A stretch of 64,000 nt of DNA from an uncultured Candidatus Cloacimonadota bacterium (GTDB taxonomy: Bacteria; Cloacimonadota; Cloacimonadia; Cloacimonadales; JAJBBL01): the NCBI GenBank assembly GCA_964490765.1, contig CAZBDV010000001.1, positions 145,437-209,436 of the forward strand, in the 5' to 3' direction. The notes beneath the pieces were generated by a model. It was not told where the DNA came from. It made no database searches and saw only the letters and a program-made list of their open reading frames with translations. The translations under genes were made by a program, and so were the position numbers. This document shows, in pieces, positions 5,213 through 47,051 of the stretch. Position 1 is the stretch's first letter. The number at the start of each line of letters is the position of its first letter.

Positions 5213-7120
5213 TTACTTAACTATCATCATCTTGCTTGTATGTTGATAGTTGTCGGTCTGCATACGGAGGAAATAGATGCCTGAAGACAAAGGTCTCCCC
5301 TGGCTGTCTCTGCCATCCCATGTAATCTGGAATTCACCTTCGGGCTGAACACCATCGACGAATTTCTTAACCAACTGACCACGTATATTATACACTGCCA
5401 ATTCCATTCGTCCGGTTTCTCTCATACTAAACTGAATAGTAGCAGCAGGGTTGAAAGGATTCATTGGATTTGGATAAGGATTACTCAATGACGTAACATA
5501 TACAGGATTAGGTATCTCAGGTTCCTGTTCTATTATGACAGTGACGGGACCATGGAATTGATAGGTTAAATCAAGATCCACAGACTGTAACCAGTAGTAA
5601 TATGTCTGATCAATAGCGAGATTATCATCAACAAAGCTATAACTATGTGTACTTGAAGTATTCGTTGCCGGAATTATTGAATTGGTGATTCTTGTAGCTT
5701 CATTAGTAGAATTTGTAGTCCCTCGATAGATATGATAACCAATCATATTGGTCTCTGTTTGAGAAACCCATAACAAGCTGACAGAATCTACATTCAGGAT
5801 TGTGGCAGTAAAAGATGCCAGTTCAACAGGTAATCCCGGGCAATACTCATATTCAAAGTTTACATTACGGAGTGTTGGATATCCTCTGTTTGTTCCCGGT
5901 CCATTTGATTCCCAGATCTCATCAAAATCCCATTCTACATAGGTATTGTCAGCATAAGGATAATGAGACATCTCTTCAGTAGTTCTGGCATAGCCAGTTA
6001 CTTCAGGATTATAGGGCCAGTACCACGGGAATTGACCGGGAGATATATCTGCATCCCAGTAGCTGTTGATCACCTGACCATAGCTATTACCACCAGGAGG
6101 ACCTCCAGGTCCACCGTATCCAACCAATCCACCGGGATGTTCTGCATCACCTGTACCAACTACAATTCCATTACTATAGCAGTTCTCAATTATTCCATTG
6201 TTAAGATTCAAGCCTACTAGGGCACCTACATAATCTCCATAAATTGGGGTATCACATACCTTGAAACTGTTAAGTACATGACCATAATTTACTCCAATAA
6301 GACCACCGACTTGATCATTCCCATCGACTAATCCAGTACTGTAGGATTCTTCAATCAAGCTACCGTAAGCATTCATTCCGATCAAACCACCTACTTTGTC
6401 GTTATCGACAACATCACCAGCATTATAGGAACGATATATCCAGCTATATCCAGTTGTTCCTGGCCAGGGTGCTGTACTGCCTACCAATCCTCCAACACGA
6501 TCATTACCATAAATATTCACTTCATTATAGCTGTTTTTTATCGCCGAGATAAATTGATCATTGACTTTGTGAGTTCCCTGGAGTAGACCAACTAGACCAC
6601 CTACACTAGAATCCTGAGCAATAATCCAGAAATTCGAACGTTCTGATTCGATATCACCAGAAACACTATAGCAGTTTTCTATTATGGTATTGATAGCGTG
6701 TCCAACCAGACCACCAACTTCGCTCGCCGGGGTATTAATATAAATATCAACCAATCCGACATCTGTGATATGAGCGTTACTCGTAACACCAAATAATCCC
6801 TGTGGTCCTAGTACTTCATTGTGAATGAACATTCCGGTAATTTCATTCCCATCGCCATTATATGAACCTGTGAAGGGATTAGCACTGGTTCCGATTGGTA
6901 CCCAATTGCTTACTTCACTAATATCGATATTGGCTATTTGAACAAAATGATCGTCAGGATAGTCTCTGACATTTTCGAGATGTTGTCTGGTTTCGACCTG
7001 ATAGGGATCAGATAACGTTCCAGCTCCTCCCCTGAATTGAGCATGTAGGCTGAAGACCAGAAACATTGCCAAAAGGGTATGGATAGAAATCAAGATTAAC
7101 TTACTTTTACCACAATGCAT
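5213..7120 (-). CDS. Secreted GLUG-motif repeat protein with an Fn3-like module and a T9SS C-terminal sorting domain (paralogue 1)
   Basis: N-terminal signal peptide. Many VGGLVG/VGGLIG repeats. C-terminal YPNPMNPFNP...GIYFLRMQ...KMMIVK tail typical of Por_Secre_tail/T9SS type A CTD. Same length (635 aa) as ORF 45144..47051 and collinear with it. Confidence 0.8.
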   Translation of the reverse strand: MHCGKSKLILISIHTLLAMFLVFSLHAQFRGGAGTLSDPYQVETRQHLENVRDYPDDHFVQIANIDISEVSNWVPIGTSANPFTGSYNGDGNEITGMFIHNEVLGPQGLFGVTSNAHITDVGLVDIYINTPASEVGGLVGHAINTIIENCYSVSGDIESERSNFWIIAQDSSVGGLVGLLQGTHKVNDQFISAIKNSYNEVNIYGNDRVGGLVGSTAPWPGTTGYSWIYRSYNAGDVVDNDKVGGLIGMNAYGSLIEESYSTGLVDGNDQVGGLIGVNYGHVLNSFKVCDTPIYGDYVGALVGLNLNNGIIENCYSNGIVVGTGDAEHPGGLVGYGGPGGPPGGNSYGQVINSYWDADISPGQFPWYWPYNPEVTGYARTTEEMSHYPYADNTYVEWDFDEIWESNGPGTNRGYPTLRNVNFEYEYCPGLPVELASFTATILNVDSVSLLWVSQTETNMIGYHIYRGTTNSTNEATRITNSIIPATNTSSTHSYSFVDDNLAIDQTYYYWLQSVDLDLTYQFHGPVTVIIEQEPEIPNPVYVTSLSNPYPNPMNPFNPAATIQFSMRETGRMELAVYNIRGQLVKKFVDGVQPEGEFQITWDGRDSQGRPLSSGIYFLRMQTDNYQHTSKMMIVK

Positions 7121-7129
7121 ATATACCTC

Positions 7130-7210
7130 CTAAAATTTAAAAAAGCTTGTTACTAAGAGAGCTCCAGCTCTCACGGTTAACGTAAATGAAAAAAAATCTC
7201 TAGAAACCAT
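7130..7210 (-). promoter_or_regulatory. Candidate upstream ORF (26 codons) in the leader of the GLUG gene. Its stop codon overlaps the main gene's SD.
   Basis: Minus strand reads GGAGGAGAA-ATG GTT TCT AGA GAT TTT TTT TCA ... AAA TTT TAG-GAGGTATAT-ATG. The TAG is part of TAGGAGG, 9 nt before the main ATG at 7120. Contains a T8 run and a GAGAGCT/AGCTCTC hairpin. Confidence 0.35.
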
Positions 7211-43024: not shown

Positions 43025-43053
43025 TTGACAAAATTTCGTTTCTTGCTTATATG
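43025..43053 (+). promoter_or_regulatory. Sigma70-like promoter (TTGACA-N17-TATATG) for the leader of T9SS gene 43336
   Basis: TTGACA at 43025-43030 in the context TTGACAAA, which recurs upstream of many genes in this window. Confidence 0.4.
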
Positions 43054-43128
43054 GTTTTGTTGATTACGTTATGGAATTTGTTGACCCAAGATGATACACT
43101 GATTTTATCTATAAGGAGGATAAGAGAG

Positions 43129-43224
43129 ATGATTTCTTATCAGAGATTTCTATTTATCTGGATTCAGAAAAAATTCTCGCCGAATTACTTTTTGAATTAT
43201 ACTCATGAACAGGTTAATATCTAA
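43129..43224 (+). promoter_or_regulatory. Candidate leader peptide ORF (31 codons, MISYQRFLFIW...) with a strong SD
   Basis: AGGAGGATAAGAGAG-ATG. The first 11 codons are conserved with the uORF at 44931. The stem GATAAGA/TCTTATC brackets the ATG. Confidence 0.45.
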
Positions 43225-43335
43225 AGACTCTTTATATATATATAGGAAAGGAGCAATAATCCTACTGTCTGTCAACAATGATTAGTTTTAAGAACCCGTT
43301 TTAGCAATTATTTTGATTTATTTTGAGGTATTGAT

Positions 43336-44190
43336 ATGAAAAAGAGTTTATTTTTAATGGTCTTTGTAGTAGTGATTTTAATGTTGTCGATAAATTTTAT
43401 TGCAGCAACTACTAATATCCCTGAAATTTATACGACTATGTCGTCAGATAATGAGCCTGAATCAACCAATCATAATGATCAATGTAATCTCCTTAGCGAT
43501 TACGAAATCTACTGTCCTCTGTCTCTCGATAAAGACATGATTCTATTTGATAATTCATCACCCTCTGTTGAACTTTCGCTATTTAATATAGCCATAACGG
43601 GTAATCTTCATGTTCAGTTACAATGGACTGCCGAGACGGAGACTCATATGCTTGGTTATAATGTATTCCGTAGCCAGGTTGAGGAAATTGCTGAGTCTCA
43701 AAAGATCAATAACAAACTTATAGGTGCTTACAATAGTTCCACTCCAACTGATTATTCCTACGTAGATGTTGAAGTTAATTCAGGTGAAACCTATTATTAT
43801 TGGTTAGAATTCTACGATACCAACATGACAAGCCAGTTTTACGGACCGATTTCTGTCCTGGTTAATGAGAAAGAAGAAGATCCTGTTTCTCCGGAGGCTC
43901 TATTAAAGACCAAGCTTATCGGTTCCTATCCGAACCCCTTCAATCCAGGAACTTATATAGCTTTCTCACTGGATGAGACAGCGAGGGTTACGATCTCGAT
44001 CTATAATAATCTAGGTCAGTTAATCAGGACTCTGACAGCGAATCGGGAATTTGAGGCTGGCAGGCAGCATTCCGTTTACTTCGACGGTAAAAACCATCAA
44101 GGGAAAGACATTACATCTGGTATCTATTTCTATATCTTGAAAACAGATACTGGTTACAGAGAAGCGAGGAAGATGCTTCTACTAAAATAG
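43336..44190 (+). CDS. Secreted protein with an Fn3-like module and a T9SS C-terminal sorting domain (short relative of the GLUG paralogues)
   Basis: Signal peptide. LQWTAETETHMLGYNVFRS...YYYWLEFYD module. The CTD YPNPFNPGTYIAFSL...GIYFYILK...KMLLLK is very similar to that of 45144..47051. Confidence 0.8.
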   Translation: MKKSLFLMVFVVVILMLSINFIAATTNIPEIYTTMSSDNEPESTNHNDQCNLLSDYEIYCPLSLDKDMILFDNSSPSVELSLFNIAITGNLHVQLQWTAETETHMLGYNVFRSQVEEIAESQKINNKLIGAYNSSTPTDYSYVDVEVNSGETYYYWLEFYDTNMTSQFYGPISVLVNEKEEDPVSPEALLKTKLIGSYPNPFNPGTYIAFSLDETARVTISIYNNLGQLIRTLTANREFEAGRQHSVYFDGKNHQGKDITSGIYFYILKTDTGYREARKMLLLK

Positions 44191-44546
44191 ATTAACTGGT
44201 TAGCAGGTTTTACAGATGAAAAAACTGCCGAAGCCTGGCAGGAAGCAAAGCAGCAGGCAGGAGAATTAGATAATTGAGTTTCGTGGAGACAGGATTTGCT
44301 ACCCGTCTTCACGATGGATATGATTTACTATAAAGACAGGATGACAGGAGATGAGAGATAATGTGGAGAAAGGGAGCGCACAAAAAAGAGATTGAGTTCC
44401 GGATTTGTATGTTTTAATCTCAAATCTGAGAGCAATTGTCAAAGGCTCTTAACTCTCCAACTCTCTTCTCTCTGTTATCTGTTGTCAGAGATAAATGGTT
44501 CTGCATTGAAGCAGAAAAAAAAGAGAACAAGCCCATAAGCAAACTA

Positions 44547-44573
44547 GGCGGAGAAGACTCCGCCTTTTTTTTT
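44547..44573 (+). terminator. Rho-independent terminator with no upstream CDS (orphan)
   Basis: GGCGGAG-aaga-CTCCGCC followed by T9. Lies about 355 nt after the nearest upstream stop codon (44190). Confidence 0.7.
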
Positions 44574-44825: not shown

Positions 44826-44854
44826 TTGACAAATTATCTCACTTATATCTAATT
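44826..44854 (+). promoter_or_regulatory. Sigma70-like promoter (TTGACA-N17-CTAATT) for the leader of GLUG paralogue 2
   Basis: TTGACA at 44826-44831. CTAATT at 44849-44854. Same architecture as the minus-strand promoter at 7289-7317. Confidence 0.4.
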
Positions 44855-44930
44855 GTTACATAGAAATTGGTACCGCTATTTTCTGGTATGCAGTAGATGA
44901 TGTTTTTTAATTTATCAGGAGGATAAGACG

Positions 44931-44969
44931 ATGCGTACTTATCAGAGATTTTTGTTTATCTGGCCTTGA
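44931..44969 (+). promoter_or_regulatory. Candidate leader peptide ORF (12 codons, MRTYQRFLFIWP-TGA) with a strong SD
   Basis: AGGAGGATAAGACG-ATG. 9 of the first 11 residues match the uORF at 43129, including a Leu codon that differs at two positions (CTA vs TTG). Confidence 0.45.
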
Positions 44970-45143
44970 GCAGACCTTGCGTGGATTGGTGATGGTAATT
45001 ATGTTATTATTTTGAGAAGCACGCTTAATTTTTATCTTTGATCTGAAAGTTGAGTAACAACTATTATCCCCTCCTTTAGACCACGCAAGGTTATCTCATA
45101 TTGTAGTGAAAAAATCTGCAATTTCATATTCGAAGGAGGAAAA

Positions 45144-47051
45144 ATGAAACGCATTTTATTTATCTTTGTTGTCCTGACTTTCCTCGGGACAGTTAATATC
45201 TTCGCTCAGACTGAAATCTGGACAGCAGGAGAACTAGATAACATCCGGAGTAGTAACATTACCCTCAGTAGTGATTATATCCAGATGACCGATATTACTC
45301 TCGCAGGAGATTGGGATCCTATTGGTACAGAGAGTGTTCCATTCACAGGTACTTATAATGGTAACGGATATGAAATCATTGGTCTCAACAGCACTATAGG
45401 TGGATTGTTTGGAGTAACCGAGGACGCATTCATAATGAATGTCGCTCTAAACAACATATCGATTGCAACAATGAGTGGAACTGTTGGTGGACTTGTCGGA
45501 CACGCTAAAAATACCAGAATCGAGAACTGTTATACAGGTCCTTTCGGTAAGATCGAGCAACTCGATATTTCGGGAGGCGGAGGTGATGTTGGTGGCTTAG
45601 TAGGTATCCTGGAAGGTACCGCTCTTGGTGATAACGATGAGTTTATCTCATATATCAAAAACAGCTACAATCAAGTTACGGTTTCAGGAGATAACAGAGT
45701 AGGTGGATTAGTCGGAAGCACATTAATCTGGCCGAATGGATTAGAACGTTATAGCTGGATCTATCGCTGTTACAATATTGGACCTGTGGTTGATAGTGAT
45801 AAGGTGGGTGGCCTGATTGGTATGAATGCTGAAGGAAGCAAAATTGAAGAGTGCTGGAGTGCCAATACGGTTCAAGCAGAACAGCAGGTCGGTGGTTTAG
45901 TAGGTATTAATTACGGACATATCCTCAATTGTTACTCTATCTGTGGACGGCCAGTTATAGGTGATTATGTTGGTGGTCTGGTTGGTGTAAATTACGCAAG
46001 TGGAGTAGTAGAAAACTGTTATAGCAGCAGAGTAGTACAACTTGCAGGAGAAATGCAGCATCCCGGTGGTCTTATTGGTTGGGGTGCCCCTGGCCAGACT
46101 CCACCACCACCTACTGAGCCATCAGGTTATGGTGAAGTAATCAATAGTTATTGGTGTGTTGAACGTTCCGGAGTCGATTCTCTGGGTTATAGTACAAATT
46201 ATGATATTCTGTATCTTTCCGGAAAGTTAGGTGCGGCAAGGACTCAGGACGAGATGGCTGTACAAATTTATGCTACTAACACATACGTTACCTGGCAAGC
46301 TGACTGGTACGATGATAATCCCTATATATGGGAAGCTACTTTATCTGACGGACCAAGCCTGGGATATCCAGTATTAGCAGATGTGCCTTTTGTCTGGAAT
46401 TGTCATTTTGATGTACCGCTACCCGTAGAACTATCATCCTTCACAGCAATAGTCATATCAACCGGCGCAGTCAATCTGGAATGGCGGGCAGAGACAGAAA
46501 CCAATGTCCTCGGTTATAATGTTTATCGATCCGAATATAATGATCTTGGTGATGCTGTAAAGATCAACGGTCCTGTTATCATTGCCAATAACAGTTCTAC
46601 TCCGTCTAACTATTCATTTCTCGATGAAGAGATCATACACGGGTCAACCTATTATTACTGGCTGGAGTCGGTAGATCTTGACCTTTCCAACGCCTTCCAC
46701 GGCCCTGTTTCGGTCCTGATAGCCTATGATGATGATGATGATGATAATGATATTCCCGAGATTCCCTTAGTAACGGAATTGATAGGTGCTTATCCAAATC
46801 CGTTTAATCCAGGAACACACATCAAATTCTCACTCGAAGAGACTTCCAGTGTCACAATTGTCATCTATAATGTACGTGGACAGTATGTTAAAACACTGGC
46901 ATCAAACAGAGAATTCGAAAAAGGGAGAAATCATACACTATTTTTCGACGGTAAGAATCATCTTGGTAAGGAAGTAAAATCTGGAGTTTATTTCTATATA
47001 ATGACAACCGAAGATTATCGCGAAGTGAAGAAGATGCTCCTGTTAAAATAA
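45144..47051 (+). CDS. Secreted GLUG-motif repeat protein with an Fn3-like module and a T9SS C-terminal sorting domain (paralogue 2)
   Basis: Signal peptide. VGGLVG repeats collinear with 5213..7120. Poly-Asp linker. CTD YPNPFNPGTHIKFSL...GVYFYIM...KMLLLK. Confidence 0.8.
   Translation: MKRILFIFVVLTFLGTVNIFAQTEIWTAGELDNIRSSNITLSSDYIQMTDITLAGDWDPIGTESVPFTGTYNGNGYEIIGLNSTIGGLFGVTEDAFIMNVALNNISIATMSGTVGGLVGHAKNTRIENCYTGPFGKIEQLDISGGGGDVGGLVGILEGTALGDNDEFISYIKNSYNQVTVSGDNRVGGLVGSTLIWPNGLERYSWIYRCYNIGPVVDSDKVGGLIGMNAEGSKIEECWSANTVQAEQQVGGLVGINYGHILNCYSICGRPVIGDYVGGLVGVNYASGVVENCYSSRVVQLAGEMQHPGGLIGWGAPGQTPPPPTEPSGYGEVINSYWCVERSGVDSLGYSTNYDILYLSGKLGAARTQDEMAVQIYATNTYVTWQADWYDDNPYIWEATLSDGPSLGYPVLADVPFVWNCHFDVPLPVELSSFTAIVISTGAVNLEWRAETETNVLGYNVYRSEYNDLGDAVKINGPVIIANNSSTPSNYSFLDEEIIHGSTYYYWLESVDLDLSNAFHGPVSVLIAYDDDDDDNDIPEIPLVTELIGAYPNPFNPGTHIKFSLEETSSVTIVIYNVRGQYVKTLASNREFEKGRNHTLFFDGKNHLGKEVKSGVYFYIMTTEDYREVKKMLLLK

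Follow-up and report, generated by a model that had tools for sequence, protein, structure and literature searches.

The window analyzed here, the whole stretch of 64,000 nucleotides under study, comes from the genome of an uncultured Cloacimonadota bacterium (2.56 Mb, 42.5% G+C, with strong Shine-Dalgarno (SD) sequences at its main genes). It contains two genes for cargo proteins of the type IX secretion system (T9SS), hereafter main genes A and B, and in the leader of each lies a short upstream open reading frame (uORF) that begins within a conserved block. The features of the two leaders and their genes are as follows:

43025–43030, + strand: putative -35 TTGACA box of leader A, with the uORF ATG 104 nt downstream
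43103–43161, + strand: conserved block A, comprising a U-rich lead-in, SD, start hairpin, ATG and codons 1–11
43114–43119, + strand: SD of copy A, AGGAGG, with a 9-nt gap to the ATG
43119–43141, + strand: start hairpin of copy A, a GATAAG/CTTATC stem with the AUG in its loop
43129–43224, + strand: uORF A, MISYQRFLFIWIQKKFSPNYFLNYTHEQVNI, 31 codons plus a TAA ending at 43224
43233–43244, + strand: (TA)6 tract in the leader A spacer, no role assigned
43336–44190, + strand: main gene A, 284-aa secreted protein (Por_Secre_tail, 28.6 bits; CHU_C, 31.5 bits; FlgD_ig)
44826–44831, + strand: TTGACA box of leader B, with the uORF ATG 105 nt downstream
44905–44963, + strand: conserved block B, comprising SD, start hairpin, ATG (44931) and codons 1–11
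44917–44922, + strand: SD of copy B, AGGAGG, with an 8-nt gap to the ATG
44922–44944, + strand: start hairpin of copy B, a GATAAG/CTTATC stem with the AUG in its loop
44931–44969, + strand: uORF B, MRTYQRFLFIWP, 12 codons plus a TGA (44967–44969)
45144–47051, + strand: main gene B, encoding a 635-aa protein with GLUG repeats and a T9SS sorting domain

An earlier reading, made from the letters of the window without database searches (hereafter the sequence-only reading), had proposed that both blocks carry an SD, an ATG bracketed by a GATAAG/CTTATC stem and related short peptides, and that they precede T9SS cargo genes. All of these elements are present at the positions given above, and sorting domains were found in both main proteins. 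The same reading had put the main ATG 207 nt (A) and 213 nt (B) beyond the uORF start codon, itself about 100 nt after a TTGACA box, distances that our measurements reproduce (104 and 105 nt for the latter), and it had drawn attention to the (TA)6 tract following copy A, which is indeed found at 43233–43244 and is absent from the leader of the sister species described below. The peptide of uORF A opens with MISYQRFLFIW. Copies A and B are separated by a single indel, located in the spacer between SD and ATG, codons 1–11 being free of indels in every copy; within the YQRFLFIW codons the sole difference is CTA in one against TTG in the other, as had been pointed out, and it is synonymous. A degenerate pattern for the peptide matches twice in the window, against 0.01 matches expected from shuffled sequences. 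The sister species conserves the TTGACA box of leader A together with its flank (AATGTTTGACAAAA), and the box presumably represents a promoter element; no canonical -10 element was scored near it.

A six-frame search of the whole genome revealed a third copy, C, on another contig (G000:C12:36171-36251). Copy C encodes MIYYRRFLFIWFTDNLPGLISMIFYM, uses GGGGGA as its SD, has a TTGACA box 65 nt upstream and sits 306 nt before its main ATG. Searching both strands of the genome with nhmmer returned exactly these three copies and no others, and among the 217 SD-led small intergenic ORFs of the genome the three copies score 44–48 on the motif, the next best scoring 18. One further candidate (MMIYVGRFRSAYLW, contig C7) was rejected as a fourth copy, since it lies upstream of a promoter, at a gene end. 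A single metagenome scan with the back-translated peptide, which also recovered the same organism, identified a sister species known only from metagenomes. Its syntenic, 115-kb contig (L051) carries two orthologous copies, A2 and B2, with the uORFs MISYQRFLFIWLTE and MRTYRRFLFIWP, respectively, each followed by a stop codon; relative to B, B2 shows a synonymous CCT to CCA change. The uORF is identical in all five samples that hold B2 and in both of those that hold A2, and no orthologue of copy C was found in the sister species.

The five distinct copies define a consensus uORF start of M-x-x-Y-(Q/R)-R-F-L-F-I-W, in which M1, Y4, R6, F7, L8, F9, I10 and W11 are invariant. All five share the same architecture, with AGGAGG or GGGGGA 8–9 nt before the ATG on the same strand, a TTGACA box 65–105 nt upstream of the uORF and the main ATG 207–306 nt downstream of its start. 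The distance from uORF ATG to main ATG varies among copies (207, 269, 213, 209 and 306 nt), and the spacing of about 210 nt that the sequence-only reading had emphasized is therefore a property of A and B and not a fixed feature of the family. Beyond Trp11 the copies diverge in sequence, length and stop codon: the next codon specifies Ile (A), Leu (A2) or Phe (C), and the five frames comprise 12, 12, 14, 26 and 31 codons. The uORF shares the frame of the main ORF in A, B and C and lies in a different frame in A2 and B2, and a fusion of the two by read-through or frameshifting was rejected on this basis.

The element appears to be restricted to a narrow lineage, because it was not found in other genera, in other Cloacimonadota or among GTDB representatives. 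In two other genera of the family, gene B orthologues follow long leaders with TTGACA promoters, but the mini-uORFs there are unrelated and the block is missing. In the sister species the block does precede the orthologous genes, and the refuting condition named in the sequence-only reading, no conservation upstream of orthologues in relatives, was not borne out for that species. A search of 231 other Cloacimonadota genomes with the RFLFIW pattern and a peptide profile yielded chance-level matches only, those inspected being located within genes or lacking both ATG and SD. The strict peptide pattern produced two chance matches in GTDB species representatives, one in Staphylococcus and one in Dokdonia, each located within a gene or antisense to one, and the metagenome matches MSLYSSFLFIW, MGFYKSFFFIW and MFIYSSFFFIW were likewise set aside for lying antisense to or within genes. 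No Rfam 15 family matched the window at gathering scores, and none matched the leaders at E values up to 5.

The genes behind all five copies carry a T9SS C-terminal sorting domain, with Por_Secre_tail, CHU_C or FlgD_ig detected at the C-terminus of every downstream protein scanned. Copy A2 precedes a 446-aa NosD/beta-helix protein with a sorting domain, B2 a 638-aa orthologue of B, and C a 137-aa protein that consists of a signal peptide and a T9SS sorting domain and nothing more. An SprA-like T9SS translocon is itself encoded in the genome (SprA_N match of 94 bits in a 2143-aa frame). About 126 of the approximately 1906 ORF-genes in the genome carry the sorting domain, and at this base rate the occurrence of three out of three copies before such genes is unlikely by chance, with the qualification that the copies are paralogous and not independent.

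The sorting-domain ORFs, of the FlgD-Ig/Por_Secre_tail type, make up roughly 6–7% of the ORF-genes, and many of them share with gene B a C-terminal module of about 210 aa at 40–57% identity. One conserved leader is also followed by different passengers: the 284-aa protein (43336–44190) and its 446-aa counterpart in the sister species (L051:1721-3061, NosD/Pel9A-like beta-helix) lie behind the same conserved leader and align over their C-terminal 230 aa or so only, at 64% identity. The 137-aa protein behind copy C (G000:C12:36478-36891; L007:3478-3891) ends 14 nt before a 1167-aa protein (G000:C12:36905-40408; L007:3906-7409) with PEGA and chitobiase C-terminal domains and no sorting domain on record, and the two could form a split cargo or carrier pair. 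Within the window, a strong terminator-like hairpin followed by T9 is located at 44546–44573, about 355 nt past the stop codon of the 284-aa gene; no ORF ends nearby, and weak, sub-threshold Rfam sRNA matches overlap it.

Comparison between the two species allows the constraint on the block to be evaluated. As a neutral yardstick we used the fourfold-degenerate sites of the B orthologue pair, which are 55% identical (the main proteins of B and B2 being 78.5% identical). Outside the promoter and the block the leaders of A and A2 cannot be aligned, with identities per 20 columns of 18, 20 and 17 in the block versus 0–14 elsewhere. Over a 62-nt block (43100–43161) the two are identical at 59 of 62 positions; identity reaches 100% over the 25 nt leading up to the ATG, and the three differences that fall in the eleven codons (AGA/AGG, CTA/TTA and TTT/TTC) are all synonymous. 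Mapping codons 4–11 of all copies onto the tree ((A,A2),(B,B2),C) yields eight substitutions, six of them synonymous and the remaining two being Gln to Arg changes at one site; the changes at synonymous positions respect codon degeneracy (AGR, YUA, UUR, UUY). The probability of at least six synonymous changes among eight is 0.0004 under a uniform null, 0.004 if 25% of changes are taken to be synonymous and about 0.02 if transitions only are considered, a null under which the excess is modest; these values derive from five sequences in two species.

An internal control for the A/A2 and B/B2 pairs is provided by a degenerate homologous uORF elsewhere in the window:

7130–7210, - strand: uORF in the leader of GLUG paralogue 1, MVSRDFFSFTLTVRAGALLVTSFFKF followed by a TAG stop that overlaps the main SD

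The peptide of this uORF begins MVSRDFFSF in the present genome and MVSRIFLYL in the sister species, and over its first eleven codons the two species differ by one synonymous and eight non-synonymous nucleotide changes. Taken together, A/A2 and B/B2 show a ratio of synonymous to non-synonymous changes of 6/1, versus 1/8 for paralogue 1 (Fisher p=0.009). Both the reading frame and the peptide of the block are thus conserved beyond neutral expectation. The paralogue-1 uORF (26 codons, SD-led, upstream of the GLUG paralogue at 5213–7120, with its TAG contained in TAGGAGG) also holds a perfect palindrome, GAGAGCTGGAGCTCTC, and it keeps its frame and position in the sister species while its peptide is not kept; its appearance suggests a relative of the YQRFLFIW uORF that has decayed and is arranged for translational coupling.

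Synonymous sites within the conserved codons are themselves nearly fixed (TAT in 5/5, ATC in 5/5 and TTT in 9/10 instances, in a genome where TTC accounts for 51% of Phe codons), and Leu in the core uses only the three rarest Leu codons. These sites are too uniform for free drift, which implies that RNA-level constraint, favoring U-rich, weakly structured RNA, or gene conversion also acts. The proposal of selection on the peptide, advanced in the sequence-only reading from copies A and B, is therefore borne out insofar as five copies keep eight residues and six of eight substitutions are synonymous, and has to be amended to include a contribution from RNA-level constraint or gene conversion.

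Folding of the leaders predicts a start hairpin of -9.0 kcal/mol in A and A2, -7.0 kcal/mol in B and -5.9 kcal/mol in B2, and the proportion of shuffled sequences that fold as well is 0.2% for A and 2% for B. The hairpin is absent from copy C (dG -1.7), and the stem that had been described around the start codon hence characterizes four of the five copies. In all five, a helix is predicted to begin 0–12 nt after the Trp codon. The elements of this helix in leader B are as follows:

44967–45098, + strand: predicted long-range helix of leader B, with compensatory changes
44967–44970 with 45095–45098, + strand: outer pairs, UGAG (which includes the uORF stop) with CUCA
44974–44984 with 45081–45091, + strand: inner pairs, ACCUUGCGUGG with CCACGCAAGGU
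45070–45076, + strand: anti-SD CCUCCUU in the helix loop, complementary to the main SD AAGGAGG (45133–45139)

The outer stem is formed by UGAG/CUCA in B versus AUGAAA/UUUCAU in B2, with one compensatory change from G-C to A-U. The homologous helix of copy C (CCUGCCUGG with CCGGGCAGG) falls inside the uORF and, relative to B, displays two compensatory pairs (G-C to C-G and U-A to C-G) and one G.U pair. The anti-SD of leader B is kept in the sister species. With W11 occupied by a ribosome, the main SD of B is predicted to be unpaired with a probability of 0.21 instead of 0.65; predicted access to the main SD stays the same in A, A2 and C. Predicted folds and main-SD accessibility are inconsistent among copies, and a common RNA switch was rejected on these grounds. 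No conserved pairing partner, the main ribosome-binding site included, was found for the 3′ half of the block, and no intrinsic terminators were detected in any of the leaders; Rho is present in the genome. The entire leader of gene B (44826–45143, 320 nt) is 80% identical between species, compared to 55% at fourfold-degenerate sites, and may itself function as a structured regulatory RNA.

Because the changes it has accumulated are mostly silent, the uORF is probably translated into a regulatory leader peptide, one that belongs to a known general kind. In the specific form that we favor, albeit tentatively and at somewhat under an even chance, the block would constitute the ribosome-binding site and first eleven codons of a short, lineage-restricted cis-regulatory uORF, possibly one on which ribosomes pause. 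The analysis establishes the anatomy of the element, its set of copies, their pattern of conservation and the covariation of the helix in B and C, from which we go on to infer translation of the uORF and pausing of the ribosome on it; any direction of regulation and any sensed signal would likewise be inferences. Under this model, the uORF would be translated, with residues 1–11 of its peptide under purifying selection, and the leader peptide would act in cis by slowing or arresting the ribosome around codons 11–12. Conservation ends at Trp11 while the tail drifts, so the functional event would most likely take place on the ribosome once residues 1–11 have been made; given that this limit coincides with a codon boundary and that the peptide is not long enough to emerge from the tunnel, a pause or arrest dependent on the nascent chain would be the likeliest such event. 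A ribosome held at this point, or terminating two codons later in B, would cover the 5′ arm of the adjacent helix and keep that helix open, leading the 110–225-nt spacer to re-fold, and the re-folded spacer could in turn alter access to the main ribosome-binding site or the access of Rho to the untranslated spacer.

One rival explanation is that only the act of translation matters, through leader unwinding, coupling or ribosome loading, with no role for the peptide itself, the uniformity of the copies being due to gene conversion between paralogous leaders and to nucleotide-level constraints from the SD, the start hairpin and the U-rich, unstructured codons. Nearly invariant synonymous sites and Leu codons drawn exclusively from the U/A-rich rare ones speak for such a scenario; A and B agree at synonymous sites more than codon usage predicts (about 0.006, an estimate), and the leader of paralogue 1, which keeps its uORF while the peptide drifts, indicates that a uORF without a fixed peptide is tolerated. 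Yet the changes that do occur are synonymous and respect codon degeneracy, conservation ends exactly at the codon boundary past Trp11, the TTT to TTC and CAG to CGA changes break the small RNA pairings that can be drawn in that stretch, and the 3′ half of the block is devoid of a conserved pairing partner. We consider this explanation unlikely. The lack of stable conserved structure in the 3′ half of the block, which varies only synonymously, also argues against a non-translated RNA or DNA element (an operator, an RNA hairpin or a decoy resembling a ribosome-binding site) in which the ORF would be incidental. Such an element could be embodied in the hairpin GATAAGA-N9-TCTTATC, together with a third TTATC upstream, and it would account for the significance of the palindromic GATAAG/CTTATC hairpin in A, A2 and B, for the identity of A and A2 over the 25 nt upstream of the ATG and for the 80% identity of the B leader between species against the neutral 55%. 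Copy C, however, has no hairpin (dG -1.7) and retains codons 4–11 intact, all five copies present a perfect SD at correct spacing and an ATG, and Rfam matches are lacking, making an element of this type quite unlikely.

Two further explanations assign the peptide either no function or a function away from the ribosome that makes it. The block might be a functionless relic of a duplicated gene start (SD, ATG, signal-peptide n-region and first h-region residues) carried along in the duplication of cargo genes, and the uORF peptide does resemble the start of a signal peptide: main gene B opens with MKRILFIF, to be compared with ..QRFLFIW, and modules are shuffled in the cargo family, the same leader preceding different passenger domains in the two species. 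A relic should nonetheless decay like the leader around it, whereas the block is 95% identical amid random flanks and occupies the same position and orientation in five leaders; moreover, no gene in the genome opens with a similar peptide, and we regard this origin as improbable. Conservation of an aromatic and hydrophobic core would also fit a small hydrophobic peptide acting in trans, for instance as a membrane-active or signaling molecule, and there is precedent in peTrpL, a leader peptide with a reported trans function (PMC7298713). Products of 12, 12, 14, 26 and 31 residues with unrelated tails, of which only the N-terminal 11 residues are kept, are difficult to reconcile with such a role, and 12 residues are too few to span a membrane; a trans-acting product is accordingly the most improbable of the explanations weighed here.

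The cis-acting leader peptide that we favor can also be cast in a bolder form, in which MxxY(Q/R)RFLFIW defines a new family of nascent-chain arrest peptides gating the production of T9SS surface proteins through leader re-folding. Peptides of this family would act wholly within the exit tunnel, at codons 11–12, either intrinsically or on a small-molecule cue. This extension appears doubtful at present, but if correct it would be the first time that control by a leader peptide is described for T9SS cargo, and likewise for Cloacimonadota, and, should the peptide stall ribosomes, the known short arrest sequences would gain a new one from an uncultured phylum that branches deeply. In the literature searched no publication mentions both T9SS and uORFs and, among the matches listed, no leader peptide or uORF is tied to type IX secretion; the element would bear on the control of T9SS-secreted surface proteins, of which Cloacimonadota have very large sets. 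A selected 11-residue leader peptide offers a small, directly testable handle on peptide versus RNA effects, the reach of which is limited by its narrow distribution in two species.

Short hydrophobic leader peptides that arrest ribosomes are well established, examples being the 14-residue PepNL (PMC11890864), ErmCL (PMC5499644), MsrDL (PMC10314930) and TnaC (PMC8450073), and a selected stalling sequence, FxxYxIWPPP (Tanner et al.), is cited in PMC7897499. When compared by eye with known arrest motifs as quoted in PMC7897499 and PMC11890864 (RAPP/RxPP, GIRAGP, W-x3-D-x7-P-stop, IFVI and FxxYxIWPP), the five peptides show no match beyond the I-W-P of B and B2. Since no known motif is matched and the Pro-stop ending is not a family trait, we assign the element to the general leader-peptide kind only. 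The TnaC-like Pro-stop ending that the sequence-only reading had recognized in copy B is shared by B2 and absent from A, A2 and C.

Each of these systems resembles the element in some respects and departs from it in others. The tna leader likewise combines a short ORF containing a critical Trp with a spacer of about 200 nt lacking an intrinsic terminator, and has the Pro-UGA ending seen in B and B2, and Rho is encoded in the genome; unlike TnaC, the peptides described here lack the conserved spacing of W12, D16 and P24 and have no family-wide Pro-stop, no rut or boxA site was identified in their leaders, and the downstream genes are not catabolic enzymes. With FxxYxIWPP(P), B and B2 share a terminal I-W-P preceded by aromatic residues, but the aromatic spacing differs, the second and third Pro are absent, and A, A2 and C contain no Pro at all. 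The trpL, pheL and leuL attenuators are also short SD-led ORFs rich in F, L, I and W that are followed by RNA helices; in contrast to them, the element has no tandem regulatory codons (a single Trp and two non-adjacent Phe) and no terminator/antiterminator pair, and the genes it precedes are not biosynthetic. PepNL, the leader of E. coli pepN, differs in showing no sequence similarity, in arresting at termination, whereas three of the five copies read past Trp11, and in the nature of the genes controlled, which here would be those for T9SS cargo. Like it, however, PepNL is a very short, largely hydrophobic, SD-led uORF before a single gene, the whole of its peptide fits in the exit tunnel, and it arrests at UGA, the codon in which B and B2 end. 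Finally, ErmCL and MsrDL serve resistance genes, unlike the uORFs considered here, which also lack the IFVI and +x+ motifs and have no known inducer. In both systems a stall within the first ten or so codons of a hydrophobic leader re-folds a helix controlling the main SD, and leader B is predicted to possess such a helix, complete with an anti-SD.
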